A DNA stretch of 64,000 nt from an uncultured Candidatus Saccharibacteria bacterium (lineage in GTDB: Bacteria; Patescibacteriota; Saccharimonadia; Saccharimonadales; JAUPVS01). The translations under genes and the position numbers were made by a program. Of the stretch, positions 6,001-59,473 are shown one piece after another. A model generated the notes under the pieces. It had not been told where the DNA came from, did no database searches, and saw nothing but the letters and a program-made list of their open reading frames with translations. Position 1 is the first letter of the stretch. The number at the start of each line of letters is the position of its first letter. The stretch is from positions 2,592 to 66,591 of the forward strand of contig CAYWVZ010000005.1 in assembly GCA_964462215.1 (NCBI GenBank), given 5' to 3'.

Positions 6001-9000
6001 GTTACCAATGCCGATATCAGTACCTTCTTTACCGGTGGTACGTTGCCGGTGGTTCGCGGTGGTACCGGTGTAACGAGCGTTGGCTCGGCTGGCAGCATTG
6101 CCTACAGTAACGGCTCTACCTACGCCTTCAGCTCGGCTGGCAGCACTGGCCAATGTCTGCTTTCGGGCGGTACCGGTTCGCCAACTTGGTCGACTTGTGC
6201 GCCGTCACCTGGCACCAGCCTTATGACTCTGCAAGGTACCAGCGGCACGCCGCAGTCTATCTTGGTGGGTGATACCGTCACAATTGCCGCCGGCACCAAC
6301 ATTACTACTACGGCCGGAGCCACCGACACCGTTACAGTGGCAGTGGTCGACAACCCGACCTTCGCGACCAGTGTTACTACCCCAGTTTTGAATGTCAGCA
6401 GCCGTATCAACGGTAATGCTTCCGACACCACTGCCGCACCAACCTACACCTGGACTGGCGACACCGCCACTGGTATCTACCGCCCAGGCGCCGGCCAGGT
6501 AGGCATAACCAGTGGTGGCACAACCATAGCGACTTTCAGTAGTACGGAAGTTAATTTATCATCCAGTGTTCGGCTTAATCTAGCAGGGGTGCCAGTGGTT
6601 GAGGGTAGTGCGGGTAGTGCTAACCCTAAGGTTTTCCGTAACCTTGCTTCATATTACTCAACGGCTAGTCCGGACACTGGTGCTATCGTTATAAAGACCA
6701 ACATACCGCGCGGTAACTTACTGAATCGTGTACGCCTGCTCGGATATGTATACGACTCTGGAAATCAATCACCTGTACTCGATGTTACTATATCGGGATA
6801 CTGGTACGATAGCGGCTACAGTTGGCCTAACCGGGGCTATGTTTATGAAGGTCGGCAGCCAAGCAACGTGCGCTTTGGTGTGGATGCCGGTGACAACGTG
6901 GTCATTATCGTAGGTGACGTGGCAGATACTTGGCACGATCCAAGCTTCCATATTACTGAATGGCTGGTGTCTAGAAACAATAGCACAGTTCCCGATTCTT
7001 ATGGTGACAATTGGGAGGTTGGTATAGAGAATGACCTTAGTGCTTACAGTAATATGTCATCTGTACCTGATACCACTAAGGGCTCCACAGCCAATCCATT
7101 CACGGCATTTAACGTAAGCGGCACCACTACATCGGGTTCGTTTATCCAAGGCGTGAACCAGGTCTGTGACGTCAGTAACAACTGTAACTACGCCACCGCC
7201 GGCCAGTTTGCCACGGCCATAGTTCAGGGCGGCAACAGCTTCGGTACTGACATGACGATCGGTACTAACGACAACTTTGACCTCAACCTTAAAACCAACG
7301 GTGTCACCCGTCTGATCATAAGAGCTAACGGTAACATCAACATACCCTCTAGCGCCCTGCAAACCGGCGGTACCACCCGCTTAACCAGCGCCGGTGTTCT
7401 GCAAAACGTCACCAACGCCAACGCTGGCACCTTCTTCACGGGCGGTACGTTGCCAAATGCCCAACTGGTCAACAGCGGTGCTTTGACGGTTACGGCTGGT
7501 ACCGGTTTGAGTGGTGGCGGGTCAGTGGCGCTAGGCGGCACCACCACGATTGACCTAGCTAACACCACGGTAGCCGCCGGTTCTTATGGTTCGGCCAGCC
7601 AGGTCGCCACCTTTACGGTTGACGCCCAAGGCCGCTTGACTGCTGCTGCGGACACCAGTATCGCCATAGATGCTACGCAAATTACCGGCGGTACGTTACC
7701 GGTTGCCCGCGGCGGTACCGGTGCCGCCACCTTTACCAGCGGCGGCATATTGTATGGCAACGGCACGGGCGCGGTGCAAGCCACACCGGTGCTGACCAAC
7801 GGCCAGTTACTCATTGGCGACGGCAGCGGCGCACCAACCGTTGGCACACTGACGCAAGGCACCGGCATAGACATTGCCAACGGCGCCGGCACTATCACCG
7901 TAGGCCTAGACACTACCTACCTTGGCAGCAACTACTTTGCCCAGGGCGGCAACAGCTTTGGCGGGGCAGCTACGCTGGGCACCAACGACAGCAACGTCTT
8001 AAACCTGGAAACTGCCGGCACCACCAAGGTAACCATAGACACCAGTGGCAACACCAATATAGTCAGCGGCGCCCTGCAAACCAACGGCACCACCCGGCTG
8101 ACTAACGGCGGCGCCCTGCAGAACATCTCTACCATTACGGCTTCCAGCACAGTTACCGCCGCGCTGTTCTCCGGCTCCGGCGCTAGCTTGACCAGCCTTA
8201 ACGCTTCTAACTTGTCATCTGGCACGGTAGCTAACGCCCGGATCAGCGGCGCCTACACTAACTTCAGCAACATTACCGGTTCCGGCAATGTAGACTTCGC
8301 CCGATTTTTGGGCAACACGGCAGACTCAGCCGGCGCCCCGAGCTTCTCGTGGACGGGCGATCCCAACACCGGCATGTACTGGATTGGCGCCGACCAGATT
8401 GGCTTCAGCACCGGCAGCGCCCTGCGCGTAGGTATAAGCAGTTCCGGTCTTGATGTAGCCAGCGGCAACCTACTAACCGGCGGCACTATCCGTGTTACGA
8501 GCGCTGGCGCTCTGCAGAACATTACCACCGTAACCACCTCCGGTGCGATTAACGGCCAAACCATCTCGTCGGCGGCAAACTTCACCGGCACCCTGAACGT
8601 GGTAACCAGCGTGACCAGCCCGACCTACAATGTCGGTACGCGCATCCAAGGTACCAATGTGGGTAGTCCTAGTGTACCGACGTACACTTGGAGCGCAAAC
8701 CCTGACACCGGTATATATTACGTTGGTATTGCTTCTGCTATCGGCTTTTCCATTGACGGCTCGCTCAAAGCGACCATTAGCACCGGCGGCTTCGGGGTTA
8801 GTGGTTCTATAAGCTTTGATCAGGCTTTAGGTCAGGGCTCATCGGGCGCGCCAACATATAGTTTTTTTAACGATACCAACACCGGTATGTACCGGGCTGG
8901 CGCCGACCAAATCGGCTTTAGTGCCGGTGGTACCACAGGAATGAGGGTCGACACCGGGGGGGTTGACGTGATTGGCGCCCTGGCAGTCACCGGTACCCAG

Positions 9001-11117: not shown

Positions 11118-14100
11118 ATGGCCAACATAAACCCACTTCCAGCTCGTCCATCGACCGACCCCATGCAAACAGGGAGTCTTTTTAATGCCCCGGGCTCTGA
11201 GGTTGTGACCGATGTACGGTCCCCGACAGAAGGGGTAGACAGTCTGGCCGATAGTCTGGAAGAACCTACCACCGCTGACCCGCCAAGCGGTTTTTCGGCT
11301 GCTCGTAACTCCTCAGGTGGTGGTGCCGTGAGTCCGCCGCCCCAACAACCGCTTAGTACCACTCGGCGCGTCCAGTTGGCGGTCGCCGTTATAGCGTTAC
11401 TGCTGCTAGGCGGCTTTGCCTTTGTTATTACACGCGGAGCCCGGAATTTCTCGAACCAGAACGATATCATCGCCAATACTACCCCAACCCAAGCAGTCAT
11501 GCCGACATTGAACTCCTTAGAGGTTTCGGCCAAACAACCGTTGTTATTGCAGGGTGCGGCCAGCTCCGAGCTACAATTTATTGGCGCGCAAGGCTCCACT
11601 ACACTGTTATTTGCCGAACCGACACTTGTCAATTCGATTACGTTTCCTAATGCCAGCGGCCTGGTCTGCGTAAACAGTAATAACTGCGGTTATGCTACCC
11701 AAGCCGAGCTAACCCAGCTGGCCGGTACGGTGCAACAGGTACAGCCCGGTCAGCCGGCAGTACCCGGAGCCACCGGTGTAACTTCGCTGAACGGAGCGGT
11801 GGGTACTATAGTTGTTCAAGGTAGCCCCAATCAGATAATTGTAAGCGGCAGCAATGTTATAACTATAGCCACGCCCCAAGACATCGCCTTTAGCAGTTCG
11901 CCGCAGTTTGCGGGGCTAACGCTCACTGGCACCGGCACTCAAAACGGTTCGGCTATCTGTGATGCCAGTAATAATTGTAATTATGCGCCGGCCTCTGGAT
12001 CAGGCAACTATATTTGGAACGGCACTGGTTTGCAGTCCAATGCCAACTTTAATATTCGCGGCGCTGCTGCCGGCAACGTGGTTGGTGCCATCCGCGGCGC
12101 CGCCGGCCAAACGGCCAACATCTTTGAGGTCCAAGAAGAAAGCGGCTCGACGGTTATCAGTGTAGATAGCGGCGGCAACCTTGGCGTTGGCAGTGCCGCG
12201 CCCAATGCCCGCCTCGAAGTAGCGGGCGGCCGCACGTTCCTGGGCACCGGCACTCTTACCGCCCACGACCAGAACAACGTCATCCTCTTTAGTAATGCCG
12301 CCGGTACTGCTGCCCAGGCCGGTAACTTCCAAAACGCGCTAATCCTCTATGGCGGCGGCGGGCAAACCCGCACCCTGCGCCTAAGCCAGAACTACAACGG
12401 CGCTGCCTACATCGACACTAATTTTTCTGAACTGCGTTTGCGCACCCTAGCCAATAATGCCAACATAGTGCTGGAGGCTGACGGCGCCGGGCAGATCATA
12501 CTAAACAATATTACACAGGTAGCTGCGCTGGGTGCAGCTACCGGCAACAGCCTGGTGTGCCGTAATAACCTCAACCAGCTGGCCGCTTGTACAGCCATAC
12601 CGGGCACCGGCGATATTAACCAGGACGGCAACATGTTCGGCGAGAACGTTGTCATCGGCGCTCAAGACGACTTCGGCATGGACTTCATTACCCACAACAC
12701 CGTGGTGCAGAGCCTATCGAACACCGGTCAGGCTACATTCCAAAACGCCGTCGATTCGGCCACCGCCTTTCAGATCCAAAACGCCGCCGGCACAGCCGTC
12801 TTTAATTACGATACTACCGACCAAACGCTGACTCTGCGGGCCGGCACTGACCAGGGTGTCACCGGCAGCGAGCTGGCCAACAACGATTTCAGCGGCGACT
12901 GGACAGGCAGCGGCTGGACACTCGGCGCCAGCGATGCCACTCACAACACCGGCAATACCGACACGCTGGAGCCGACTACGCCGCTAACTATAACCGGCGG
13001 CAACTACTACATTGTTTCCTATCAGGTAAGCAACCGTAATGCCGGCAGCGTCAACTTTACTCTGGGCAATACTGCCGGTACGGCGGTCATTAATAATGCG
13101 ACCACTGCTCAGGTTGTCCGGGCCGGCAACGTCGACAACCTGATACTCACGCCCACTAGCGATTTTGACGGTACCATCTCGAATGTCTCGGTTAAGCAAG
13201 TTACACCGTTCAACTCTGTCCTGACAGGGCAAAAAACCGACGGAGAGACTCGCCTGGAAGTCAGGGTCGCTGCCGAAAACGGTACGCTACTGATAGGCCG
13301 AAACGTCGGTATGCTCAACCAAGGCGGTAACAACGTTGCCCTGGGCTACGACACGTTTGCGCACAACACTACCGGCAACGGCAACACTGCGCTTGGGGCG
13401 AATGCATTGCAGCATAATGTCACTGGCAGTGTTAACACTGCTCTGGGCTACCTGGCTCTACAGTTTAATACTACCGGTTCTAACAATGTGGCTGTCGGCT
13501 GGCTAGCGCTCGGACATAATACATCGGGTGGTGATAATGTCGCCGTAGGGCGTTCCGCTCTGGAATTAAACCTAACCGGCGAGGGCAATGTGGCCCTGGG
13601 CCAAAGCGCTTTACACAATAATACCACTGGTAGCCGCAACATTGCCATTGGCCAAAATACGATGGGGGACAACACCAGCGGCGAGCTTAACGTAGCAATC
13701 GGCGGGTCTAGTCTCAACCGCAATACCACAGGGCAACTAAACGTGGTGCTTGGTCATGATGCCGGCCGGAGTATAACCACTGGTGATGGAAACCTGGTTT
13801 TGCAAGGCATGCGCGATACGGGCGTTTCGACAACCGGTACCCAAAACGTAGCATTGGGCTGGGATACGCTTAATCGTGTAACCAGCGGCCAACGCAACGT
13901 GGCAGTGGGTAGCGGAGCGGGCCAGGGCATAACCACCGGCGAATGGAATCTGGCAATCTTCGGTATGAGCAACACCGGTGCTTCAACCACCGGCAGCAAC
14001 AACATCGCCATCGGCCGTGAAACCGGTAACCAGCTGACCAGCGGCGAACTCAACACTATCGTCGGCCACACGGCGCTTAACCGGGCTAGCACCGGCAGCC

Positions 14101-15419
14101 GCAATATTGTATTAGGCGAAGGTGCGGGCAACAGCATCACTACCGGCACCTTTAATATCGCCCTGGGTGGCTTGAGGAACGCCGGTGTCTCGACCACCGG
14201 CAGCAACAACATCGCCTTAGGCGACGCCAGTTTGCATCAGCTGACCAGCGGCAGCAACAACATTGCCGTCGGGTCATTATCTTTAGGATCCACAACGGGG
14301 GACAACAACGTTGCTATCGGACTATCGAGCGGCAGGTCTAATACCACCGGTTCCAACAACACCTATTTGGGTACCAGTGCCGGCGAACAAGACGGGAACT
14401 GGGTAACTGTTGCTGCCCTGGAAAGAAGTACGGCCATAGGCTATGCCGCCCAAGTACAACAGAATGACAGTATGGTACTTGGCAAGGTACAGACGGACGG
14501 TTCGCAAACTAAGGTGGGTATTGGCACGACTATGCCGACCAACTTATTGAGTGTAGCACCGGTATTCTATAACACCGGCCAGGCCAGCCAGAGCGGTACA
14601 ACTATCAGCGGATCGGGCACCACCTGGACGGCCGATATGGTTGGCAAAGAGATTGTCTTCGCCGAAGGTATTAAGGCCATGATTACCGGCTTTACCAATG
14701 CCACTACGCTGACGGCAGGCACCAGTCAGAGCGTATCGCAACAGGATTATCGCATTCACTACGCTGGCTTGCAGGTAACAACTGCCGGCAAAATTGGTGC
14801 CAACACCATGACTATCAATAACTACTTCTCGCTCAATACGGCCGAAACCGCCGACAACGACGCGCAAGGCCTGGTGTCGACCGGCGGGGCAGGCAACAAG
14901 GGAATGGTCATCCAGGGCGTATCCGGCCAGACAGCCAACCTGCAGGAATGGCAGGACAACACCGGTGCCGTGCTGGCGTTCGTTAGTGCAGCGGGTGATC
15001 TGGAGGTAGTCAATGCTACCGTTACCGGCACCCTTACCGTTACCGGAGCGGCTACCTTCAATAACACCCTGACCGTTAATGGCCACATTATTACCGGCAA
15101 CACCAGCGGTTCAACCACGGTGGCTGCCGAGGCCGGTGCCGGGGCAGGTGCCAGTGCCTCTGTGAGCGGTAACGATACCAGCGGTACCATTACGCTTAAC
15201 ACCGGTACCGGGGCTGCCGCGGGCGACCTGGCTACCGTAACCTTTGCCAACGCCTACGGCGCTGCTCCGCAAGTGGTCATCACACCCAAGGCCGTACCCG
15301 GCGGCGGCACATTCCCGCAGTACCACTATGACTCCAGCACCGGCACTTTCACGCTCAAAAGCTTCAACGCACTAACTGACAGCGCCACCTACACCTTTAC
15401 CTACTTCATCACCCAATAG
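11118..15419 (+). CDS. Large (1433 aa) membrane-anchored fibre / beta-helix-like surface protein
   Basis: The N-terminus is disordered and P/S-rich, followed by one TM helix (VQLAVAVIALLLLGGFAFVI). Cys-pair motifs are VCVNSNNCGYA and ICDASNNCNYA. Fibre motifs include GQTANIFEVQEESGSTVISVDSGGNLGVGSAAPNARLEV. A central tract of 17-residue repeats is present. The C-terminal domain is shared with the 1-10113 protein. Confidence 0.85.
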   Translation: MANINPLPARPSTDPMQTGSLFNAPGSEVVTDVRSPTEGVDSLADSLEEPTTADPPSGFSAARNSSGGGAVSPPPQQPLSTTRRVQLAVAVIALLLLGGFAFVITRGARNFSNQNDIIANTTPTQAVMPTLNSLEVSAKQPLLLQGAASSELQFIGAQGSTTLLFAEPTLVNSITFPNASGLVCVNSNNCGYATQAELTQLAGTVQQVQPGQPAVPGATGVTSLNGAVGTIVVQGSPNQIIVSGSNVITIATPQDIAFSSSPQFAGLTLTGTGTQNGSAICDASNNCNYAPASGSGNYIWNGTGLQSNANFNIRGAAAGNVVGAIRGAAGQTANIFEVQEESGSTVISVDSGGNLGVGSAAPNARLEVAGGRTFLGTGTLTAHDQNNVILFSNAAGTAAQAGNFQNALILYGGGGQTRTLRLSQNYNGAAYIDTNFSELRLRTLANNANIVLEADGAGQIILNNITQVAALGAATGNSLVCRNNLNQLAACTAIPGTGDINQDGNMFGENVVIGAQDDFGMDFITHNTVVQSLSNTGQATFQNAVDSATAFQIQNAAGTAVFNYDTTDQTLTLRAGTDQGVTGSELANNDFSGDWTGSGWTLGASDATHNTGNTDTLEPTTPLTITGGNYYIVSYQVSNRNAGSVNFTLGNTAGTAVINNATTAQVVRAGNVDNLILTPTSDFDGTISNVSVKQVTPFNSVLTGQKTDGETRLEVRVAAENGTLLIGRNVGMLNQGGNNVALGYDTFAHNTTGNGNTALGANALQHNVTGSVNTALGYLALQFNTTGSNNVAVGWLALGHNTSGGDNVAVGRSALELNLTGEGNVALGQSALHNNTTGSRNIAIGQNTMGDNTSGELNVAIGGSSLNRNTTGQLNVVLGHDAGRSITTGDGNLVLQGMRDTGVSTTGTQNVALGWDTLNRVTSGQRNVAVGSGAGQGITTGEWNLAIFGMSNTGASTTGSNNIAIGRETGNQLTSGELNTIVGHTALNRASTGSRNIVLGEGAGNSITTGTFNIALGGLRNAGVSTTGSNNIALGDASLHQLTSGSNNIAVGSLSLGSTTGDNNVAIGLSSGRSNTTGSNNTYLGTSAGEQDGNWVTVAALERSTAIGYAAQVQQNDSMVLGKVQTDGSQTKVGIGTTMPTNLLSVAPVFYNTGQASQSGTTISGSGTTWTADMVGKEIVFAEGIKAMITGFTNATTLTAGTSQSVSQQDYRIHYAGLQVTTAGKIGANTMTINNYFSLNTAETADNDAQGLVSTGGAGNKGMVIQGVSGQTANLQEWQDNTGAVLAFVSAAGDLEVVNATVTGTLTVTGAATFNNTLTVNGHIITGNTSGSTTVAAEAGAGAGASASVSGNDTSGTITLNTGTGAAAGDLATVTFANAYGAAPQVVITPKAVPGGGTFPQYHYDSSTGTFTLKSFNALTDSATYTFTYFITQ
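13326..14385 (+). repeat. About 21 tandem 17-residue (51-nt) coding repeats, G-x-x-N-(V/I)-A-(L/V/I)-G-x-x-(A/T/S)-(L/G)-x-x-N-(T/L)-(T/S), predicted beta-helix / adhesin-head-like
   Basis: Read directly from the translation: GNGNTALGANALQHNVT / GSVNTALGYLALQFNTT / GSNNVAVGWLALGHNTS / GGDNVAVGRSALELNLT and so on through GDNNVAIGLSSGRSNTT. Confidence 0.8.
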
Positions 15420-20103: not shown

Positions 20104-20942
20104 CCTTTTGCGGCGCCCGGCCGGCGCGGTGAACCATTTGTTTTGAACAGCTGGATGAAATCTTCGGTTCGTTGCAGGCCGTAGCCATAGTTTTTGGCTA
20201 GCTTGGCTAGGCCGTGGTGCTGGAAGGGCAGGGATTCGGTTAGAACGTAGGCCGGTTGATTGTGCTGCTGCCGAAGTTGGTTGAACAGCTGGTGGTACAG
20301 GTTGAGGCCGTCCTCGCCGCCGAAGATGGCCAGGCGCGGCTCCATCATGGCGGCGTCATTAAGTTGGTAACCGTCGGGTACGTAGGGGAGGTTGGCCAGG
20401 ATGGTGGTACTGGCCGGCAGGGTCAGGCCCTCCAGCAGGTCGGTGTGGTGCAGGTCAACAGTGGCTTTATGTTTGACGCAATTTTGACGGGCCACCTCCA
20501 GGCAGTTCGCGTCGATGTCGGTGGCGAGGACCTGGACGGTGCCTAGCTCCAAGGCGGCAGTAATAGCCAGGGCGCCGGAGCCGGTGCCGACGTCAATGAC
20601 AGTTTTACGGTCTTTGGCGGGTAATTGCTTGAGCAGGTCGATCATAGTTTCGCTTTCGGGGCGCGGTTCCAAAACTTCAGGGGTGATGACGAAATCGCGG
20701 CCGTAAAACTCGGTCTTGCCGCGGATGTAGGCCAGCGGTTCGTGGTGGGCACGGCGCGCCAGTTGGGCGCGCAGGTGCTTTTGTTGTTCGGCGGTCAGCG
20801 TGGCTTCGGGGTGCGCCAGCAGTTGAGCACGATCAGTGCGCACACAGTCTTCCAAAAGCACCAGCGCATCCAGCCGCGCCGTGCCCACCCCGGCTTTCTC
20901 TAGTTGCTTAACAGTTCTTTCGAGCCAGTTACCGACTGTCAT
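20100..20942 (-). CDS. prmC: Release-factor glutamine N5-methyltransferase PrmC/HemK
   Basis: It has the SAM motif [13 protein letters not shown] and the NPPY-type motif NLPYV. It lies immediately downstream of prfA and overlaps it. ATG 20942 is preferred to 20960. Confidence 0.85.
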
Positions 20943-38929: not shown

Positions 38930-41545
38930 ATGAAAAAAATCTTGAAGAAGTTTTTGGGTGACCCGCAAGCGAAAACATTAAAACGTTTGCGTAAGCGCGT
39001 GGCTGAGGTTAATGCCCTGGCGCCAACCTACAAAAAAATGACCGACGCGCAGCTACGCGCCCAAACCGACAAGCTCAAAAAACGTCTCGACAAAGACTCG
39101 CTCGAGAAGCTCTTGCCTGATGCGTTCGCGTTGGTGCGCGAGGCGGCCGACCGCACGCTCGGCATGCGCCACTTCGATGTACAGCTGATCGGCGGCATGG
39201 TCCTGCACGAGGGCAACGTTGCCGAAATGAAAACCGGTGAAGGCAAGACCTTAGTAGCCACGCTGCCGGTCTATCTCAACGCGTTAACCGGCAAAGGCGT
39301 CCATGTGGTCACCGTCAACGATTACCTGGCCCAGCGCGACGTCGGCTGGATGGGGCCGGTGTATCATTTCTTAGGGCTGAGTACCGGTGTTATCATCGCC
39401 GAAGAATCATTCTTATACGATCCGGAATTCATTAACACCAAGCATGAAGATAAGCGTCTGCAGCACTTGCGTCCCTGCACCCGCCAAGAGGCCTATAACG
39501 CCGACGTTACCTATGGTACCAACAACGAGTTCGGTTTCGACTACCTGCGCGACAACATGGTGCGCGAGGTCGACCAGTTGCGCCAACGTGACCTGCACTT
39601 TGCCATTGTCGACGAAGTCGACTCTATCTTGATTGACGAAGCCCGCACACCGTTGATTATTTCGGCGCCGTCGATGACCAGCGCCGAAGCCTACGAGCAA
39701 TTTACCAAAGTCGTACGCCAGTTGCGCAAAGACGACCACTACGAAGTCGATGAAAAACGCAAAGCCGTGGTACTAACTGACGACGGCGTAGAAAAGGTCG
39801 AGAAAGTCCTGGGCATCGACAACCTCTACGGCACCGATAATATCCGTACCATTTACCATTTAGAACAAGCTCTGCGCGCCCAGGCGCTGTTTAAGCGCGA
39901 CAAAGACTACGTTGTCAGCGGCGACGGCGAAGTGGTCATCGTCGATGAATTCACCGGCCGGTTGCTGCGCGGCCGCCGCTATAACGAGGGTCTGCACCAG
40001 GCTATCGAAGCCAAAGAAGCCGTCGCCGTACAAGAAGAGTCGATGACGTTGGCTACCATTTCGTTTCAGAACTACTTCCGTCTGTACGAAAAGCTGGCCG
40101 GTATGACCGGCACCGCCCAAACCGAAAGCGAAGAATTCCACCAGATCTACAAGCTTGAAGTGGTTGAAGTGCCGGCCAACAAGCCGCTGCGCCGCGTGGA
40201 CTTGCCCGACCGCATCTATAAGACCGAAACCGGCAAGTTTAGCGCCGTTATTAAAGAAATCAGGGTGCTGCACCAGAAGGGCCAGCCTATCCTAATTGGT
40301 ACGGCTTCGATTGAAAAGAATGAGGTAATGAGCCGTTTGCTCAAAAAGGCTGGCATACCGCACCAAATCTTAAACGCCAAAAATAATGAAAAAGAAGCTT
40401 CGATTGTCGCCCAAGCCGGCCAAAAAGGCGCGGTGACGCTCGCTACCAACATCGCCGGGCGCGGTACCGACATCTTGCTGGGCGATGGCGTCAAAGAGCT
40501 AGGCGGCTTGTTTATCCTGGGTAGCGAGCGTCACGAATCCCGCCGTATCGACAACCAGCTGCGCGGCCGCGCCGGCCGGCAGGGCGACAAGGGTACCACC
40601 CAATTCTTTGTCAGTACCGAAGACGACCTGATGCGTGTATTCGGCGGCGATCGTATCGGCGGCATGATGGCTCGCATGAATGTGCCCGAAGACATGCCTA
40701 TCGAGAACCGCATTATTTCGCGCAGCCTCGAAGCCGCCCAGAAAAAGGTAGAAGGCCATAACTTTGATATGCGTAAAAATGTTGTTCAATATGACGATGT
40801 TATGAACCGGCACCGTAAAGCCACCTACGCCATGCGCAAAGAGATTCTGCACCAGGTCAACATCCAGAAACGCATTAAAATCTTTATCGAACAAGAGGTC
40901 GAGGCGCTGGCCAACTCGCCGCTGGCCACAACCGACCTGTACGAGGAGCTGATTACCGAAGTATTGCCGTTCGATGATGCCACGCTGGACCGGCTGTTCG
41001 ACACCGCGGCCAGCGGCTTTGAAAAAGTTCTGCTCAGCGAAGCCCAGGACTTGTACGAAGCGCGCGAAGCGGCCTTTGGCGCCGAAACCATGCGCAAAGT
41101 GGAGCGCGATATTTATCTGCAAATCTTGGACAATCTGTGGATGCAGCACCTGGAAAACATGGCTCACTTGCGCGAGGGCATCGGCTGGATCAGCGTTGGC
41201 CAGCGCGACCCGCTGGTGGAATATCGCAGGCAAGGCCAACACCTCTTTGAAGAAATGCAGGCAACGCTGCGTCATGACGTGGTTCGGACATTGTTCCACG
41301 CCGAACCGGTGGCCGACCTCGACCGGCCGGTCGAGACCGACCTAACCCGCGCCGCCCGCCAGTCGGTCGATAACGCCGACAAAATTATCGACGTTGAAGA
41401 ATTCGAAGAGTCAGACTTCCAACTGCCAGTCACGCCGGTGCCAGTTGCCGCCTCCAGTACCAAAAAAGTCGTCAGTCACCGCAACCGCAAGAAAGCCCGC
41501 AAAGCCGAACGCAAACGCCGCGCCAAAGGAAAGCGCAAAAAGTGA
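38930..41545 (+). CDS. secA: Preprotein translocase ATPase SecA
   Basis: It has the Walker A MKTGEGKTL and the DEAD-like IVDEVDSILIDEARTPLIIS. Length is 871 aa with a basic C-terminal tail. A GGAGGG SD precedes the gene. Confidence 0.95.
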   Translation: MKKILKKFLGDPQAKTLKRLRKRVAEVNALAPTYKKMTDAQLRAQTDKLKKRLDKDSLEKLLPDAFALVREAADRTLGMRHFDVQLIGGMVLHEGNVAEMKTGEGKTLVATLPVYLNALTGKGVHVVTVNDYLAQRDVGWMGPVYHFLGLSTGVIIAEESFLYDPEFINTKHEDKRLQHLRPCTRQEAYNADVTYGTNNEFGFDYLRDNMVREVDQLRQRDLHFAIVDEVDSILIDEARTPLIISAPSMTSAEAYEQFTKVVRQLRKDDHYEVDEKRKAVVLTDDGVEKVEKVLGIDNLYGTDNIRTIYHLEQALRAQALFKRDKDYVVSGDGEVVIVDEFTGRLLRGRRYNEGLHQAIEAKEAVAVQEESMTLATISFQNYFRLYEKLAGMTGTAQTESEEFHQIYKLEVVEVPANKPLRRVDLPDRIYKTETGKFSAVIKEIRVLHQKGQPILIGTASIEKNEVMSRLLKKAGIPHQILNAKNNEKEASIVAQAGQKGAVTLATNIAGRGTDILLGDGVKELGGLFILGSERHESRRIDNQLRGRAGRQGDKGTTQFFVSTEDDLMRVFGGDRIGGMMARMNVPEDMPIENRIISRSLEAAQKKVEGHNFDMRKNVVQYDDVMNRHRKATYAMRKEILHQVNIQKRIKIFIEQEVEALANSPLATTDLYEELITEVLPFDDATLDRLFDTAASGFEKVLLSEAQDLYEAREAAFGAETMRKVERDIYLQILDNLWMQHLENMAHLREGIGWISVGQRDPLVEYRRQGQHLFEEMQATLRHDVVRTLFHAEPVADLDRPVETDLTRAARQSVDNADKIIDVEEFEESDFQLPVTPVPVAASSTKKVVSHRNRKKARKAERKRRAKGKRKK

Positions 41546-47396: not shown

Positions 47397-48620
47397 TTGC
47401 AAACCCGCGTTGAGCCACCGGCTCACAAAACAAAACGTTTCAAGTTAAAACCGTGGCTCAAAATTACGCTGAGCGTGGTGGTGGCTGTTGGTATCTTTGT
47501 TGCCGGCTGGGGCGTAGGCAGCGGCCGTATCGGTGTAGCTGCTTTTGGCGGCCCGCAGTCATTGAATAAACAATTACCTAACTCGCTCGACTTTAGCTCG
47601 GTTAACATGGTTTACCAGGCGCTCAAAGGTAATTTTGACGGCGAACTGAGCGAGCAGGAACTGCTCGACGGCCTAAAATCCGGCCTGGTCAAAGCCGCCG
47701 GTGACCCGTACACCGAATATCTCAACGAAGATCGATATGATGAGTTCAGTGACGCGCTGAACGGGTCTTTTGAGGGAATCGGGGCGGAGTTGGGCCAAGA
47801 CGACGACGGTAATATAGAAGTTGTCGCCCCGATTTCGGGGTATCCGGCCGAAAAAGCCGGCTTGCGGGGCGGTGATATCATCATCAAAGTCGACGACACC
47901 TTTACGACCGGCATGACCGTAACTGAGGCTGTTGAAAAAATCCGCGGACCCAAAGACACTACTGTAACGTTAACAGTTATCCGCGGCGGCCAGCAACTGG
48001 AGCTGGCTATTACGCGCGACACCATTGTCACTCCCAGCGTCCATTGGGAAGTAGAGGGCGGCATCGGTTACATGCAGATAAGCCGCTTTAACGCCGAAAC
48101 GGGGCGCTTGGCGCGCCAGGCCGCCGAAGACTTTAAGCAACAGAACGTTACGGGCGTAGTGGTCGACCTGCGCAATAATATCGGCGGCCTGACTACCGGC
48201 GCCGTCGACATATCCAGCCTATGGCTGCCGAAGGGCACTGTCGTCCTGACGGAGCGCCGCGGCGGCGATATTATTGCGACTATGCGGGCCACCGGGGATC
48301 CTGTTCTGCAAGGCATTCCGGCAGTTGTCTTAATTAACGGCGGCACCGCCAGCTCGGCCGAAATTGTCGCCGGCGCTCTGCATGACAACGGCGCAGCTAC
48401 TCTGGTCGGAACCAAGACCTACGGCAAAGGCAGCGTCCAAAAGCTGGTCAACGTAGGCAGCGGCGGGGTGCTTAAAGTTACCGTAGCCCGTTGGTACACA
48501 CCGGATGGCAAAAACATCGACAAAGAAGGTATAACCCCCGACAAAGAAGTTACTATCAGCGAAGAAGATATCCAAAACGGCCGCGACCCGCAAGAAGCCG
48601 CCGCGCTGGAAAATCTCTGA
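47397..48620 (+). CDS. S41 family C-terminal processing peptidase (CtpA/Prc-like) with a PDZ domain
   Basis: An N-terminal TM helix is followed by a PDZ region (GYPAEKAGLRGGDIIIKVD). Family motifs include VVDLRNNIGG, GGTASSAEIVAGAL and TYGKGSVQ. The TTG start has GGAGG 8 nt upstream. Confidence 0.85.
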   Translation: MQTRVEPPAHKTKRFKLKPWLKITLSVVVAVGIFVAGWGVGSGRIGVAAFGGPQSLNKQLPNSLDFSSVNMVYQALKGNFDGELSEQELLDGLKSGLVKAAGDPYTEYLNEDRYDEFSDALNGSFEGIGAELGQDDDGNIEVVAPISGYPAEKAGLRGGDIIIKVDDTFTTGMTVTEAVEKIRGPKDTTVTLTVIRGGQQLELAITRDTIVTPSVHWEVEGGIGYMQISRFNAETGRLARQAAEDFKQQNVTGVVVDLRNNIGGLTTGAVDISSLWLPKGTVVLTERRGGDIIATMRATGDPVLQGIPAVVLINGGTASSAEIVAGALHDNGAATLVGTKTYGKGSVQKLVNVGSGGVLKVTVARWYTPDGKNIDKEGITPDKEVTISEEDIQNGRDPQEAAALENL

Positions 48621-50787: not shown

Positions 50788-51129
50788 ATGCAACCAACTG
50801 ACCCGACCGACCCAACAACTAACCCAGCTCCGGCTGACGATGTAGCTCCGGCCGCACCGGCTGCCGACAGCACACCGCAAGACACTCCCGCCGAGCCAGT
50901 CGCTCCGGAAGTATCTGAGCCTACCGTCGAAACACCGGTAGTTGGAGACGCAGCTCCGGTTGAGCCTGCCGCCGGTTCCGACGAACCGCAGCAACCCCTT
51001 GGCAATAGTGTCCCCGGCGAAGCTACTGCTCCGGCAGCCGAACCGGCCGCTCCGGCCACTGAAGCTCCGGCGCCTGTCGCCGAAGAGCCTGCCGCCGGTT
51101 CCGACGAACCGCAGCAATCAGCTCTCTAA
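50788..51129 (+). CDS. Pro/Ala/Glu-rich low-complexity protein with an internal 33-nt perfect direct repeat
   Basis: An AAGGA SD lies 7 nt upstream of ATG 50788. The sequence gagcctgccgccggttccgacgaaccgcagcaa occurs at both 50962-50994 and 51085-51117. Confidence 0.5.
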   Translation: MQPTDPTDPTTNPAPADDVAPAAPAADSTPQDTPAEPVAPEVSEPTVETPVVGDAAPVEPAAGSDEPQQPLGNSVPGEATAPAAEPAAPATEAPAPVAEEPAAGSDEPQQSAL

Positions 51130-51148
51130 GGTATTACGAGACGCGCGC

Positions 51149-51176
51149 AAAAGACCCTCTACGTAGAGGGTCTTTT
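51149..51176. terminator. Strong, potentially bidirectional intrinsic terminator
   Basis: The palindrome AAAAGACCCTCTAC/GTAGAGGGTCTTTT has an A-tract on one side and a T-tract on the other. Confidence 0.8.
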
Positions 51177-51296
51177 GCTATACTATTCACATTATGGAAT
51201 TGCATGGTCAGACACCCGAAACAGCGGCCTCGCGCGAGCCCAATGATGATAAATCGGTGCCGGTCATTAAGCCGATATAATCAGACAAACATTTTA

Positions 51297-51352: not shown

Positions 51353-52153
51353 ATGTCCGAACAAGCAAATCCTGATTCCATCGAACACAGCGCCAGCGGC
51401 GAGTGGCAAAAATTGCCGCAAGGTGCTACCAGTCAGTACATTGAAGGCTTGCTAGCCAACCATGCCGATACTATTACCCCCGGCGTTGTTATGGACCGTC
51501 TGGTCGGTTCAATATTTCGAGCAGAAGGTGTTCAGCGGGCGGGGCAGGACGTAGCTCATTTACAGGAAGTTATCAAAGGCACCGAGGGCCAAAAGATTCC
51601 GGCAATGTTCCTGTCGGCATTTACCCGTACCGAAGGAGTTCGCCGGGCGCTAGCGGCCGTGGGGGCTAATTCGTTGGTTGGCGGCCAGAGCGCTTTGGAT
51701 AGTTTTCAGCCGCCCATTGCCGACCCGGCCAGTGGCGAATTACTACTTGGTTCGCTGGACCAGGTTGCCGGCTATGTCGAAACCGCTGCTCCGGCCGAAG
51801 CAGGTCTGGGCATGGAAGGCGCTACGCCCTGGAAGCAAACTCTCTTACAGGAAATAACTGATTATGTGAACCACCCCAGCACCGATGTGCAGGGTGCCTG
51901 GAAAACCCGCGACCACGTAGGTTCGAGTGCAGCTTCGGTTAAAGCCCGCCAGCAGGCTTGGGATCGAGCCGAGGTAACTGCCCGCCAGGCCGGCCTGGAT
52001 ATGGATTTCTTGACTCGTTCAGCCGATATGCTGCGGGATAAACACCTTAGCGGTGCCCGCATGGCTAATCTGCCGGTCGGCAGCCCGGAACTTGTGCAGC
52101 AGCCATTTCAAACTGAGCCAGTTACAGACTACGGACACTTGTTAGAGCCGTAA
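51353..52153 (+). CDS. Hypothetical soluble protein (266 aa)
   Basis: The ORF has its own strong promoter and SD. It has no TM helix or signal peptide, and no recognisable motif. Confidence 0.55.
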   Translation: MSEQANPDSIEHSASGEWQKLPQGATSQYIEGLLANHADTITPGVVMDRLVGSIFRAEGVQRAGQDVAHLQEVIKGTEGQKIPAMFLSAFTRTEGVRRALAAVGANSLVGGQSALDSFQPPIADPASGELLLGSLDQVAGYVETAAPAEAGLGMEGATPWKQTLLQEITDYVNHPSTDVQGAWKTRDHVGSSAASVKARQQAWDRAEVTARQAGLDMDFLTRSADMLRDKHLSGARMANLPVGSPELVQQPFQTEPVTDYGHLLEP

Positions 52154-52154
52154 A

Positions 52155-52427
52155 TTATTCGACGGTGACTTCGGTGCGGCGGACGGTTTTGCCGGTGAAA
52201 CGGCGGACTTTGCGGGTTTTGTAGGTGACAACGCCGTCTTTCTCGGCGTGGACGGTGTAATTGCGACTAAGTGTAGTGCCTTTGCCGGCGCGCTTGCTGA
52301 GGCCGACCTGACGGACGATAACCTGGCCGGTTTTGACTTTTTGGCCGCCAAACAGCTTAACACCGAGCCGCTGGCCGGGGCTGTCATGAACGTTTTTACT
52401 GGAACCACCTGCTTTGACGTGTGACAT
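52155..52427 (-). CDS. rpmA: 50S ribosomal protein L27
   Basis: The sequence reads MSHVKAGGSSKNVHDSPGQRLGVKLFGGQ... Confidence 0.95.
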   Translation of the reverse strand: MSHVKAGGSSKNVHDSPGQRLGVKLFGGQKVKTGQVIVRQVGLSKRAGKGTTLSRNYTVHAEKDGVVTYKTRKVRRFTGKTVRRTEVTVE

Positions 52428-52428
52428 A

Positions 52429-53646
52429 TTACTTCCTTATTAGTACTACCAGTTCACGGCCGACAATTTGGCCTTCACGGTGATAGACCAAGTCTGTATC
52501 GCGAGCGTGAACAAAACTCTTGCGAGTATACCCCAAATCTTCCAGAGAAGCAAGCGTTTTAAGGTGTTTTAGGCCGTCACGCGTGAACCAGGCCGGCACG
52601 GCGATGCACATACGAAAACCGGGTTTGGTCTGGCGGGTGACATTTTGCAGGAATGTGCGGTGGATGGCATCGGTTTCGTCCATGGCAGCTTTTAGTTCGG
52701 CGGGGCGGGGCGGGTGAGCGAACGGCGTACCCAAGTAGGTTTCGGTGGCGATAAGGTCAATGGGCTGCTCCCACTGGAAAGAGGTAGCGTCGCCAACAGA
52801 TACCTTAAACGAGCCGGCGGCTGGGTGCTTTTCGAGCAACCAGTCGAGATTAGCCTGAGAATATTCGACCATACGCGGTTCCAGGTCGGTACCGTATGCG
52901 TCGTAACCCATCAGCAGTGCTTCTTGTAGTACGACGCCGGTGCCGCAAAACGGATCAAGCAAACGGGACAGACGTTCACTGTGTGTAATGGTAGTTTGTT
53001 CCTCGGGAGTCATAGCTGAAACATGCAGTCCGGCCAGGTTGATGATAATTTGAGCCAGTTTGGGTGGCAGCATGCCGACTTTGGCGTCGCGCTTGGGACG
53101 TTTTTGGTCGCGGGCGGCGTAGGCGTTGATGTCTTGGGCGGCTACGACCTGGGCCAGCAGGGTGGTACGACCATCGCGGATGATCAGGATCTCTAAGCCC
53201 GTCGGGCCGGTGAGTTGGTTGTGGAATGTTTGGGCGCTGCTGAGTGTTTGAGCGGTGTTGGGCACGACCCGGACTGAACGGCCGGTGTTCTTGATGACTT
53301 TTTTAATCTGCAAGCCGGCACGGTTTATGTCGTTTACCGATACGTCGAAGCCGTAATTATTGAGCCCTAGCCGCAGCTTGCCTTCGGGAAAGTAGCCCAG
53401 GTGTTCCGGCACGTTCTGGCAGAGGTGGGCTATGGCCTCTTTCCAGCTGGCTGATTCGAGGCGGGTGAGTATTTTAGCCAGCTTGACGCTGCCACCCAGG
53501 CGGCCGAAGGCAACTTCGGAATGGTGTTTGTCGAGTAGGGTAAGGCCGCCGGGCAGAGGGTGTAGGGCATCGGCGCCGTACAGGCTTTCCAGTTCGGCCA
53601 GGCCCAAGGCTGGTTGCCGGCCCAGGATTGCAATGGTTTGATTCAT
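52429..53646 (-). CDS. SAM-dependent methyltransferase, UPF0020/Trm11-like (probable RNA methyltransferase)
   Basis: SAM motif I is LLDPFCGTGVVLQEA, followed by YGTDLEP. At the motif IV position it reads IATETYLG rather than (D/N)PPY. ATG 53646 is preferred: TATAAT on the minus strand at 53659-53654 lies 7 nt upstream, and the alternative ATG 53655 overlaps that box. Confidence 0.6.
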   Translation of the reverse strand: MNQTIAILGRQPALGLAELESLYGADALHPLPGGLTLLDKHHSEVAFGRLGGSVKLAKILTRLESASWKEAIAHLCQNVPEHLGYFPEGKLRLGLNNYGFDVSVNDINRAGLQIKKVIKNTGRSVRVVPNTAQTLSSAQTFHNQLTGPTGLEILIIRDGRTTLLAQVVAAQDINAYAARDQKRPKRDAKVGMLPPKLAQIIINLAGLHVSAMTPEEQTTITHSERLSRLLDPFCGTGVVLQEALLMGYDAYGTDLEPRMVEYSQANLDWLLEKHPAAGSFKVSVGDATSFQWEQPIDLIATETYLGTPFAHPPRPAELKAAMDETDAIHRTFLQNVTRQTKPGFRMCIAVPAWFTRDGLKHLKTLASLEDLGYTRKSFVHARDTDLVYHREGQIVGRELVVLIRK

Positions 53647-53661
53647 CGGCTTCATTATACC

Positions 53662-53750
53662 GCAGAACAGGTGTGCGCGGCACCGCAAGTCCTCGCAGTC
53701 GCAAAAATGAACGACTGCCGCGGAAGGCTCTCCGCGCACACCTGTTCTGC
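53662..53750. promoter_or_regulatory. Perfect 19-bp inverted repeat (gcagaacaggtgtgcgcgg / ccgcgcacacctgttctgc) with a 51-bp spacer; each arm abuts an outward-facing TATAAT box
   Basis: The arms lie at 53662-53680 and 53732-53750. The inner spacer contains a further 7-bp inverted repeat (gcagtcg at 53695-53701 and cgactgc at 53712-53718). The flanking -10 boxes lie at 53659-53654 (minus strand) and 53751-53756 (plus strand). Confidence 0.7.
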
Positions 53751-53764
53751 TATAATGAGTGGCG

Positions 53765-54811
53765 ATGAGCGAACAAGAGAAGACTAAGCGTTGGAAGCTA
53801 ATTCTTAACATCGTAACCGTGGGTGCTTTGTTGCTGTTATGTTACTTCTTGCGCGACCAGATCATGGAGACTATCGACAACCTCAGCCGGGTTAACGCCT
53901 ACGCGCTATTGTTGATTCTGCCGATTCAATTCTTTAATTATGATTCGTACGCGAGAATGTACGTGTACTTGTTCGCTATTTTGGGGAACAAAACTAAGTA
54001 TTGGGACATGTTCAAGGTGTCGCTGGAGCTTAATTTGGTTAATCACGTGTTTCCGAGCGGTGGCGTGTCGGGCTTTTCATATTTCGGTATCCGGATGAAA
54101 GATTTTGATGTCTCTACCGGTAAATCGACACTGGTGCAGACTATGAAGTTCGTGTTGTTATTCGTATCGTTCGAGGTTTTGATTATTTTAGGGCTGTTCT
54201 TTTTGGCGGTTGGCAACCAGGCTAACAACGTTACTATTTTAGTGGCCAGTTCACTAGCAACCTTCTTGCTGGTTGGCACTTTTGGCGCGGCTTTTCTGAT
54301 TGGCAGCCAGAAGCGCATCAATAGCTTTTTTACCTACGCGACGAAGTTTTTTAATAAAACGGTCCACCTGGTGCGGCGTAAACATCCGGAGACTATCGAC
54401 GTTGGGCGTGTGCAGCGGATGTTTAAGGAGCTACACGAAAATTACATGGTCCTAAAAAGTGATTACCGTAAACTGGTAAGGCCGGTGGTCTGTGCTTTGA
54501 TTGCTAACACCAGCGAGATTTTAACGATTTACGTGGTATACGTCGCTTTTGGCCATTGGGTCAACCCCGGAGCGATTATTTTGGCTTACGCCATTGCTAA
54601 CTTTGCCGGCTTAATTTCGGTATTGCCGGGCGGCATCGGTATTTACGAGGCTATCATGACGGCAGTGCTGGCTACTGCCGGTATTCCGCCGGCCGTCAGT
54701 ATCCCGGTGACGGTAATGTACCGGGTGCTCAACGCAGTAATACAGATTACACCAGGCTACTATTTTTACCACAAAGCGTTGCGCGGCAAGCCTAAACCTT
54801 CGGCGGCGTGA
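53765..54811 (+). CDS. UPF0104 / lysylphosphatidylglycerol-synthase-TM-region (flippase-like) membrane protein
   Basis: It has about 8 TM helices. The N-terminus is KRWKLILNIVTVGALLLLCYFL and the C-terminal region reads LPGGIGIYEAIMTAVL...YRVLN. ATG 53765 lies 8 nt after TATAAT. Confidence 0.6.
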   Translation: MSEQEKTKRWKLILNIVTVGALLLLCYFLRDQIMETIDNLSRVNAYALLLILPIQFFNYDSYARMYVYLFAILGNKTKYWDMFKVSLELNLVNHVFPSGGVSGFSYFGIRMKDFDVSTGKSTLVQTMKFVLLFVSFEVLIILGLFFLAVGNQANNVTILVASSLATFLLVGTFGAAFLIGSQKRINSFFTYATKFFNKTVHLVRRKHPETIDVGRVQRMFKELHENYMVLKSDYRKLVRPVVCALIANTSEILTIYVVYVAFGHWVNPGAIILAYAIANFAGLISVLPGGIGIYEAIMTAVLATAGIPPAVSIPVTVMYRVLNAVIQITPGYYFYHKALRGKPKPSAA

Positions 54812-55920
54812 ACGACGTTGTTTTAAGTGTTTCGGATTTTGTTGGTTCGCTGAACCAAACACTGGAATATGCCTATCCGAACGTGGTAATTGTTGGAGAG
54901 CTAGCCAACTTTCGCGTTAGCAAGAACCGTTGGGTGTACTTTGACCTGAAAGATGAATATGCCAGCGTGAAGTTCTTTGGTTCGGTGTATCAGCTGCCGG
55001 GGCCGTTGGAAGACGGGCTGATGCTGCACGTCCGCGGCAACCCGCGCTTGCACCCGCTATATGGCTTTAGCGTGACGGTGCAGTCGATTCAGCCGGTGGG
55101 CGAGGGGTCGCTACGCAAAGCGGCTGCCTTGTTGGAGGCCAAACTGCGGGCCGAGGGGTTGTTCGAGCCGAGCCGCAAGCGCGGGTTGCCGTACCCGCCG
55201 GCCAGTGTCGGCTTGGTGACCTCGGGCGAGTCGGCGGCTTACGCGGACTTTATGAAAATTCTGAACCGGCGCTGGGGCGGCCTGGGCGTGGAACTGGCGG
55301 ACGTGCAGGTGCAGGGCGAGGCGGCAATAGAGCAAATCGTGCGGGCTATTGAATATTTCAACGCCCAGGCCGCCCCGCCGGAGGTCCTAGTGCTGACGCG
55401 CGGCGGCGGCAGTGCCGAAGACTTGGCGGCCTTCAACACCGAGCAGGTCACCCGTGCCGTGGCGGCCAGCCGCATCCCGACATTGGTTGCCATCGGCCAC
55501 GAAGTCGACCTCAGCCTAGCCGAGCTGGCCGCCGACCAGCGCGCCAGCACGCCCAGCAACGCCGCCGAACTGCTGACTCCCGACAAGCGGCAGGTTCAGT
55601 CGCAACTGGCTTCATACCAGGCTCGCTTAGGCCAGTTCCTGCATGGTCAGGTTACTGCCGCCAAACAGCAGCTTCAGACACAAAACTTGCATCTCCAAGA
55701 CCGTTTTGACCGGTTTTTCCGCTATCAGCACGAAGCTGTGGAGCGTAAACACCAGCTGCTCGAAGCTCTCAACCCGGCTCGGGTGCTAGAACGAGGTTAC
55801 GCTGTTGTTAGTGCGCCGAGCGGCTCTATTCATTCTGTTACACAACTTCAGCCTGGTACCGAGGTGCGTATTCGTTTTAGCGATGGCCAAGCCCAAGCCA
55901 AGGTAACTAAGGTACAATAA
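54808..55920 (+). CDS. xseA: Exodeoxyribonuclease VII large subunit
   Basis: An N-terminal OB fold is present (VSDFVGSLNQTLE...VVIVGELANF), along with the TRGGGS motif and a C-terminal coiled coil. There is a GTGA overlap with the upstream gene. Confidence 0.9.
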   Translation: MNDVVLSVSDFVGSLNQTLEYAYPNVVIVGELANFRVSKNRWVYFDLKDEYASVKFFGSVYQLPGPLEDGLMLHVRGNPRLHPLYGFSVTVQSIQPVGEGSLRKAAALLEAKLRAEGLFEPSRKRGLPYPPASVGLVTSGESAAYADFMKILNRRWGGLGVELADVQVQGEAAIEQIVRAIEYFNAQAAPPEVLVLTRGGGSAEDLAAFNTEQVTRAVAASRIPTLVAIGHEVDLSLAELAADQRASTPSNAAELLTPDKRQVQSQLASYQARLGQFLHGQVTAAKQQLQTQNLHLQDRFDRFFRYQHEAVERKHQLLEALNPARVLERGYAVVSAPSGSIHSVTQLQPGTEVRIRFSDGQAQAKVTKVQ

Positions 55921-59423: not shown

Positions 59424-59467
59424 GTTTTATCCGGCACAGATACATATACCCTACAGATGGCGTCTGT

Positions 59468-59473
59468 TATAAT
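59468..59473 (+). promoter_or_regulatory. TATAAT box 8 nt upstream of the glyQS ATG (leaderless-type)
   Basis: The sequence reads ctgtTATAATacggcgtaATG. Confidence 0.4.

Follow-up and report, generated by a model that had tools for sequence, protein, structure and literature searches.

Divergent promoter pairs may share a palindromic operator, as in intergenic regions of the tetR/tetA type, whilst the Correia elements of Neisseria and other miniature inverted-repeat transposable elements (MITEs) carry or create promoters at TA targets. Here we describe a locus that bears a likeness to both. It lies in a 64,000-nucleotide stretch of DNA from an uncultured Candidatus Saccharibacteria bacterium (contig CAYWVZ010000005.1; the whole stretch is called the window below), where a perfect 19-bp inverted repeat separates two divergently transcribed genes, one encoding a Trm11-like methyltransferase and the other a membrane protein of the LPG_synthase_TM family (formerly UPF0104). 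Leaderless transcription from promoters that possess a -10 element only is cited in PMC7441243 as having been modelled for many bacterial genomes (Lomsadze et al., 2018, PMC6028130). In Proteobacteria, perfect inverted repeats are conserved and occur in excess (PMC5941160), hairpins arise and persist through template switching (PMC8794818), and inverted-repeat expansion has been described at a yeast promoter (PMC13100816); between them, these three studies report that template switching homogenises, extends, and maintains inverted repeats. From sequence comparison alone, we propose, with a probability of roughly one half, that two leaderless promoters are separated by an inherited, dispensable spacer in the form of a hairpin or cruciform, that the repeat makes up its arms, and that these arms have been homogenised by template switching.

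The inverted repeat and the two promoters

The preliminary description of this DNA had reported a perfect 19-bp inverted repeat with an additional 7-bp inverted repeat at its centre, and both are present (coordinates are collected in Table 1). The two arms are complementary at all 19 positions and lie 51 nucleotides (nt) apart, and the 7-nt stem between them is accompanied by a second central pair, CGCGGCA/TGCCGCG. With up to three mismatches permitted, the 19-mer is confined to its two sites in the window (0.04 expected), and perfect inverted repeats with a gap of up to 150 nt never exceeded 15 nt when the window was simulated 40 times with a third-order Markov model. The repeat is real, and far beyond chance. 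Its dyad symmetry extends outward through the -10 boxes of the two flanking promoters (TCATTATA at 53652-53659 and TATAATGA at 53751-53758), interrupted by a 2-nt bulge on one side, and a single long hairpin takes in the entire intergenic region (DNA fold of -40.8 kcal/mol, z = -8.9).

Each of the two genes is preceded by a TATAAT box at a distance that leaves no room for a Shine-Dalgarno sequence. This arrangement had been read as a mirror-image pair of divergent, leaderless-type promoters, and that reading is well supported, because at least 12 other genes (long open reading frames, ORFs) in the window start 5-11 nt after TATAAT or a variant that differs from it at one position, and because both boxes are kept in nearly all related loci. 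If transcription starts where the leaderless geometry places it, the arms lie upstream of both starts and would not be transcribed, as had also been claimed. The arms can be said to occupy the -35 region in a geometrical sense only, because no -35 hexamer is recognisable upstream of either -10 box and the promoters would be of the -10-only kind. Such promoters are ordinary for genomes of this type, and they do not need the repeat.

The methyltransferase is taken to start at ATG 53646, and not at the upstream ATG in TATAATG, because its homologues (8000, of Saccharibacteria type, with a top identity of 70%) have the N-termini MNQS or MKQS; these N-termini rule out the alternative start at ATG 53655, which would give MKPMNQ. 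On the other side, ATG 53765 is consistent with homologues, in that the N-terminus of the LPG_synthase_TM protein, MSEQEKTKRW, is as in relatives. The best database homologues came from Candidatus Saccharibacteria throughout, at identities of 70% or less. The gene rpmA lies directly downstream of the methyltransferase gene and is probably in the same operon, and xseA is assigned to the LPG_synthase_TM operon because it overlaps the stop codon of that gene.

Two other sites in the window carry boxes of the same type. The gene starting at 59482 has another leaderless promoter, whose TATAAT is abutted by the dyad ACAGA-N5-TCTGT (5-nt arms; 59449-59473), with a sequence unlike that of the 19-mer arms. 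Between 33216 and 33924 there are approximately 700 nt devoid of a long ORF, with two TATAAT boxes on the plus strand, 11 nt apart (33330 and 33341), and one on the minus strand (33333).

Comparison with related loci and origin of the spacer

The locus was compared with 11 distinct orthologous loci (L033, L036, L037, L039, L040, L041, L043, L044, L045, and L046, plus duplicates). Gene order is kept in ten of the 11, L043 having a different synteny. Every one of the ten relatives that have the divergent arrangement carries ATTATA (the reverse complement of TATAAT) 6-9 nt from the start codon of the membrane-protein gene. On the methyltransferase side, TATAAT or TATACT is found 6-10 nt before the ATG in L033, L036, L037, L039, L040, L041, L043, L045, and L046, the exception being L044, where the box is 31 nt upstream. 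A GG directly before the methyltransferase-side TATAAT is common to the window, L033, L036, L039, L043, and L045.

The DNA between the two boxes varies in both length and sequence. The boxes overlap in L040 (ATTATACT) and are 21, 23, 27, 40, 51, or 93 nt apart in other loci; in the window they are separated by 91 nt, and in L039 by 96 nt. Except for homology between the window and L039, and a resemblance to L033, the inter-box sequences are mutually unrelated. The palindromic spacer is present in the window and L039 only and is absent from the other nine related loci. Likewise, a strong hairpin fold among the inter-box regions compared is limited to the window (z = -7.5) and L039 (z = -5.4); folds at the other loci are not clearly unlike those of shuffled sequence, except for trivial pairing between the two -10 boxes. 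Measured against shuffled sequence, the regions of the window and L039 also gave z values of -7 to -9.

In L039, the homologous centre (CTTCCGC-stem-TCATTTTTGCG-stem-GCGAGGACTT) is identical to that of the window at 33 of 40 positions. The loop of its inner stem is conserved, and two pairs of the stem have changed on both sides (A-T to C-G and T-A to C-G). Consensus folding of a MAFFT alignment misaligned the arms, and pairs were instead counted on a structure-anchored alignment. When the alignment is anchored on the centre, the outer stems lie at the same positions in both genomes. The arms are identical at only 7 of 14 positions (50%, as against 83% in the centre), but none of the 14 pairs has been lost in either genome: six are unchanged, six have changed on both sides, and two have become G-T wobbles. 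The outer stem of L039 has 14 pairs, three of them G-T, compared with the perfect 19 of 19 in the window. Conservation in relatives, to which the preliminary description had looked as a check on the repeat, is thus found for the pairing, in L039, but not for the sequence of the arms. A small ORF in the centre of the spacer was rejected as a candidate; read by eye, it comprises 26 codons in the window and 7 in L039, and is not conserved.

In a neighbour-joining tree of the methyltransferase, the window branches as sister to the pair formed by L039 and L033. The palindrome is missing from L033, whose 27-nt spacer opens with CACCT like the left end of L039, closes with CACATCTGTTTTGTGG followed by TATAAT, and looks like the result of an internal deletion. 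The simplest history would be one gain in the ancestor of a small clade, and then the internal deletion in L033. On the minus strand, the methyltransferase-side arm with its GG (CACACCTGTTCTGCGG, followed by TATAAT) matches the corresponding DNA of L033 (CACATCTGTTTTGTGG, followed by TATAAT) at 13 of 16 positions, with C/T differences at the other three. On the membrane-protein side, both L033 and L039 have AGGTG(G) directly adjoining TATAAT where the window has its second arm. Because the methyltransferase-side arm matches native L033 DNA, the LPG-synthase-side arm is probably the inverted copy. The GG found before the methyltransferase -10 box of several relatives is precisely where the copied tract stops. 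The alternative suggestion that the repeat is a duplicated promoter cassette is therefore borne out in part, in that one arm is homologous to L033 promoter DNA and the other replaces sequence seen in L033 and L039; however, a short template-switch conversion within an older palindrome is likelier than duplication of a functional cassette.

The promoter repeat has counterparts elsewhere in the window, which contains six perfect inverted repeats with arms of at least 15 nt and gaps of up to 150 nt, where approximately 0.05 would be expected. One of the six is a terminator-like palindrome and four are intragenic, and an extra 13-nt perfect repeat is found at a fifth gene site. Five of these seven perfect repeats cluster at 48.1-55.4 kb, around the promoter palindrome. 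Comparable repeats in 53 kb of DNA from relatives are restricted to terminators and one 13-nt repeat in xseA, and the relatives are without the intragenic repeats of the window. Comparison with orthologues revealed that, in the arms within xseA, the S41 peptidase gene, and secA, complementarity has been created by clustered, lineage-specific, and partly non-synonymous changes at conserved residues (Table 1). An excess of inverted repeats, together with clustered changes that make complementarity, is the pattern expected from quasi-palindrome correction. For the promoter repeat, the evidence that changes in one arm mirror the other arm is indirect, consisting of the match of one arm to L033 and the replacement of the other, unlike that for the repeats in xseA, the S41 peptidase gene, and secA. 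The idea that the intragenic repeats are recoding invertons was rejected, as inversion adds stop codons in three of five cases.

We envisage that two conserved, back-to-back, -10-only leaderless promoters would serve the methyltransferase-rpmA operon to the left and the LPG_synthase_TM-xseA-xseB operon to the right, and that in a small clade of Saccharibacteria their -10 boxes came to be parted by a palindromic spacer of ~90 nt, which would consist of an outer stem, internal loops, an inner stem, and an A/T-rich loop as its cap. An intramolecular template switch during replication (quasi-palindrome correction) probably copied the promoter-proximal DNA of the methyltransferase side, inverted, to the other side, and the same process probably left the further perfect inverted repeats within genes of the window. 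If the arms are a by-product of such homogenisation, they would therefore not be a sequence-specific operator. Any effect would be expected at the level of the DNA, where both promoters share identical sequence from -13 to about -31, and the negative supercoiling that divergent transcription produces could cause a cruciform to be extruded, which would bury both -10 boxes.

Several points weigh against this account. First, the centre, with its invariant loop, is far better kept than expected of neutral intergenic DNA at 70% protein identity, and this conservation points to a selected function that lies outside the explanation. Second, the element occurs in two genomes only, and the nearest relative is too distant for changes to be polarised rigorously. 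Third, selection for nucleic-acid structure, rather than a mutational bias, could account for the excess of perfect inverted repeats. Fourth, all three non-Watson-Crick pairs of L039 are G-T on the methyltransferase-sense strand, a faint sign of a single strand or an RNA that folds. The conserved centre and pairing may reflect a structural role at the DNA level (a cruciform), a protein that reads the A/T-rich apex, or self-maintenance of the palindrome.

Alternative explanations of the repeat

The preliminary description had raised the possibility of a shared operator, in which a regulator would bind each identical arm, or the conserved centre, and co-regulate both operons by occluding the -10 and spacer regions. 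The arms do overlap the -13 to -31 region of both promoters, each contains an ACAnnTGT dyad that is also seen in the promoter-proximal DNA of L033, and the sequence of the centre is conserved between the window and L039. However, just half of the arm sequence is kept in L039, where the changes are compensatory; nine related loci keep both promoters without the element; the centres of the two arms are 70 bp apart; and no gene for a DNA-binding regulator was found among the scanned neighbouring genes, within about 8 kb. Although each arm is one mismatch away from a Gram-positive LexA (Cheo) box, GAAC-N4-GTTC, this candidate was discarded since there are 16 such matches against 22 expected, and the box is not in relatives. 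Nor was the 19-mer found again in the rest of the window or, in context, in public collections (see below). We consider a sequence-specific operator unlikely, and the claim was not upheld.

Further copies of the 19-mer, the search for which had been suggested at the outset, were not found in context in public collections. Its four matches in 596 Gb of genomes are at chance level, and most of its 28 matches in metagenomes fall at a single protein-coding locus of Verrucomicrobiota. At this locus, L005:5528-5553 and approximately 20 orthologous metagenome loci (including L004, L008, L009, L012, L015, L018, L025-L028, and L032) are identical to window positions 53660-53685 over 26 nt, within a conserved protein-coding gene (...RRTGVRGTVLAVNQ...). 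The match is probably a coincidence, because its flank alignment score of 9.5 is barely above those of unrelated matches (up to 8.5). Its extension by 7 nt past the 19-mer that was searched for was unexpected.

It is also quite unlikely, in our estimation, that a MITE-like palindromic element (in the style of Correia, REP, or RPE elements) was inserted into overlapping -10 boxes (ATTATAAT), duplicating TATA and recreating one -10 box at each end. The idea stays alive because TATA flanks both ends of the spacer, albeit as part of both -10 boxes, and because L040, with its overlapping boxes, has the architecture that such an empty site would show. A long terminal inverted repeat, a length of ~90 nt, and variable presence among relatives would all suit a mobile element. 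Yet neither the 64-kb window nor 96 kb of DNA from relatives, the 160 kb of Saccharibacteria DNA covered by a profile search, yielded a second copy, and there were no in-context matches in genome, metagenome, or viral collections; the centre motif, in particular, had no match in viral contigs. No gene for a transposase or recombinase was seen among the scanned neighbouring genes. Moreover, conservation is lower in the terminal arms than in the centre, where transposition would require the reverse; one arm shares homology with promoter DNA that is native to L033; and the tree fits one gain and one deletion.

Covarying pairs and a conserved loop are the classic signature of a structured RNA, and a promoter outside the region could, in principle, give rise to a structured 5′ leader or a small RNA in the methyltransferase sense, which would control the methyltransferase-rpmA operon or act in trans. 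The non-Watson-Crick pairs of L039 would all be G-U on that strand, a bias with a chance probability of about 1 in 4. We judge a transcribed hairpin to be improbable: both conserved -10 boxes lie at its outer ends and point outward, so that the hairpin is upstream of both presumed starts; no other promoter-like site was found in the region; and there is no T-run of the terminator type. Rfam 15 gave no match in the window at the gathering threshold, the sole match in 53550-53860 being noise (E = 7.5), and no tRNA was found anywhere in the window.

Finally, although perfect inverted repeats flank a short segment in a promoter region, it is highly improbable that the 19-nt arms are recombination sites of an invertible switch that flips the 51-nt centre, given that both -10 boxes are outside the invertible part, that the centre offers no -35 hexamer in either orientation, that the scanned neighbours lack a recombinase, that inversion at the analogous intragenic repeats would introduce stop codons as described above, and that 51 nt is very short for site-specific inversion.

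Surroundings of the locus and comparison with described systems

A Pfam scan of the neighbouring genes identified the methyltransferase, ribosomal protein L27, LPG_synthase_TM, XseA, a CHAP hydrolase, an S41 peptidase, a receiver-only response regulator, RecO, and proteins with no Pfam match. One of the latter is encoded by a 266-aa ORF at 51353-52153, between the response-regulator region and rpmA. This slot is variable, since relatives carry other, mostly unannotated genes there (a Fic-like protein, an FHA protein, and small ORFs). At the far end of the window are two giant ORFs, 1-10113 (>3370 aa, running off the start of the window) and 11118-15419 (1433 aa); the C-terminal Peptidase_S74 (endosialidase chaperone) domain of the former suggests fibre-like surface proteins.

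Table 1. Positions of the promoter elements, genes, and inverted repeats described in the text (numbered from the first nucleotide of the window)
Feature	Position	Strand	Remarks
rpmA (ribosomal protein L27)	52155-52427	-	Pfam PF01016, E = 4e-22; same gene order in relatives
Trm11-like / UPF0020 S-adenosylmethionine-dependent methyltransferase gene	52429-53646	-	start ATG 53646-53644; Pfam PF13847 and PF01170
LPG_synthase_TM membrane-protein gene	53765-54811	+	Pfam PF03706, E = 2e-31
xseA (exonuclease VII large subunit)	54808-55920	+	Pfam PF02601, E = 2e-73; holds two intragenic perfect inverted repeats
-10 box TATAAT, methyltransferase promoter	53654-53659	-	7 nt upstream of ATG 53646
2-nt bulge	53660-53661		CC on the plus strand, GG on the minus strand; between arm and -10 box; outer limit of the perfectly copied tract
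Methyltransferase-side arm	53662-53680		GCAGAACAGGTGTGCGCGG on the plus strand; probably ancestral
Centre of palindromic spacer	53681-53731		51 nt, of which 40 can be aligned to the L039 centre
Inner hairpin	53695-53718		stem GCAGTCG / CGACTGC (53695-53701 / 53712-53718); A/T-rich loop CAAAAATGAA (53702-53711)
LPG-synthase-side arm	53732-53750		CCGCGCACACCTGTTCTGC on the plus strand; probable inverted copy
-10 box TATAAT, LPG_synthase_TM / xseA / xseB operon	53751-53756	+	8 nt upstream of ATG 53765
Bidirectional intrinsic terminator-like palindrome	51147-51178		perfect, 32 nt, GCAAAAGACCCTCTACGTAGAGGGTCTTTTGC; A-run before, T-run after; just downstream of ORF ending at 51129
xseA inverted repeats	55035-55051 / 55175-55191 and 55265-55293 / 55357-55385		perfect or near-perfect; usual RKR[A/P]LP is RKRGLP in the window, WGGVEID is WGGLGVE, and [S/A]HAE is AQAA
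S41 peptidase gene inverted repeat	48171-48186 / 48263-48278		perfect or near-perfect; usual NPGG (as in L036) is NIGG in the window
secA inverted repeat	40433-40447 / 40520-40534		perfect or near-perfect; usual VTIATN / GTERH (as in solved structures) is VTLATN / GSERH in the window
prmC inverted repeats	20744-20758 / 20875-20889, nested 20764-20783 / 20853-20872		perfect or near-perfect

What the locus may mean in a wider sense can be put forward only tentatively. It may represent either a DNA structure under selection in one clade (a cruciform that responds to supercoiling, or a landing site for a protein that recognises the conserved A/T-rich apex), which would couple two divergent leaderless promoters, or an unusually active template-switch process that rewrites even universally conserved motifs of SecA, the S41 peptidase, and XseA into perfect inverted repeats. 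The stakes are modest. Divergent leaderless promoters of the -10-only kind are recorded here for an uncultured lineage of Saccharibacteria, and the locus offers a clean natural example of a promoter-embedded palindrome of which the pairing, but not the sequence, is kept across species; were the spacer functional, it would be a rare case in which DNA structure, and not a protein operator, links two promoters. The wider point may matter more, namely that one small genome holds many perfect inverted repeats in essential genes, at the cost of conserved residues, and these intragenic repeats could provide a gauge of template-switch mutagenesis in reduced genomes whose capacity for DNA repair is limited.

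Compared with the described systems, the locus shares with tetR/tetA-type regions the back-to-back promoters, the dyad symmetry between them, and symmetric DNA that overlaps the promoter cores. It differs in that the arm centres are not one or two helical turns apart, the sequence of the arms is not conserved, no regulator gene is adjacent, and the element is dispensable in relatives. With Correia elements and other MITEs it has in common a palindromic module of ~100 nt, TA-rich flanks, a TATAAT at both ends, and variable presence in relatives; it departs from them in being a single copy in the sequence examined, with termini less conserved than the centre and one arm derived from native promoter DNA. 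As regards the leaderless, -10-only promoters modelled in the work cited above, the geometry is the same across the window, with TATAAT 5-11 nt before the start, and nothing about it is unusual. Short template-switch mutation by quasi-palindrome correction (the Ripley model) differs from the present case in that the latter sits exactly between two leaderless promoters, its nearest relative has 70% protein identity, and its centre is conserved in sequence beyond what template switching alone would give. The likenesses to that model are an imperfect repeat in L039 that is perfect here, one donor-like and one copy-like arm, and, in the other repeats of the same genome, clustered multi-nucleotide changes that make complementarity.

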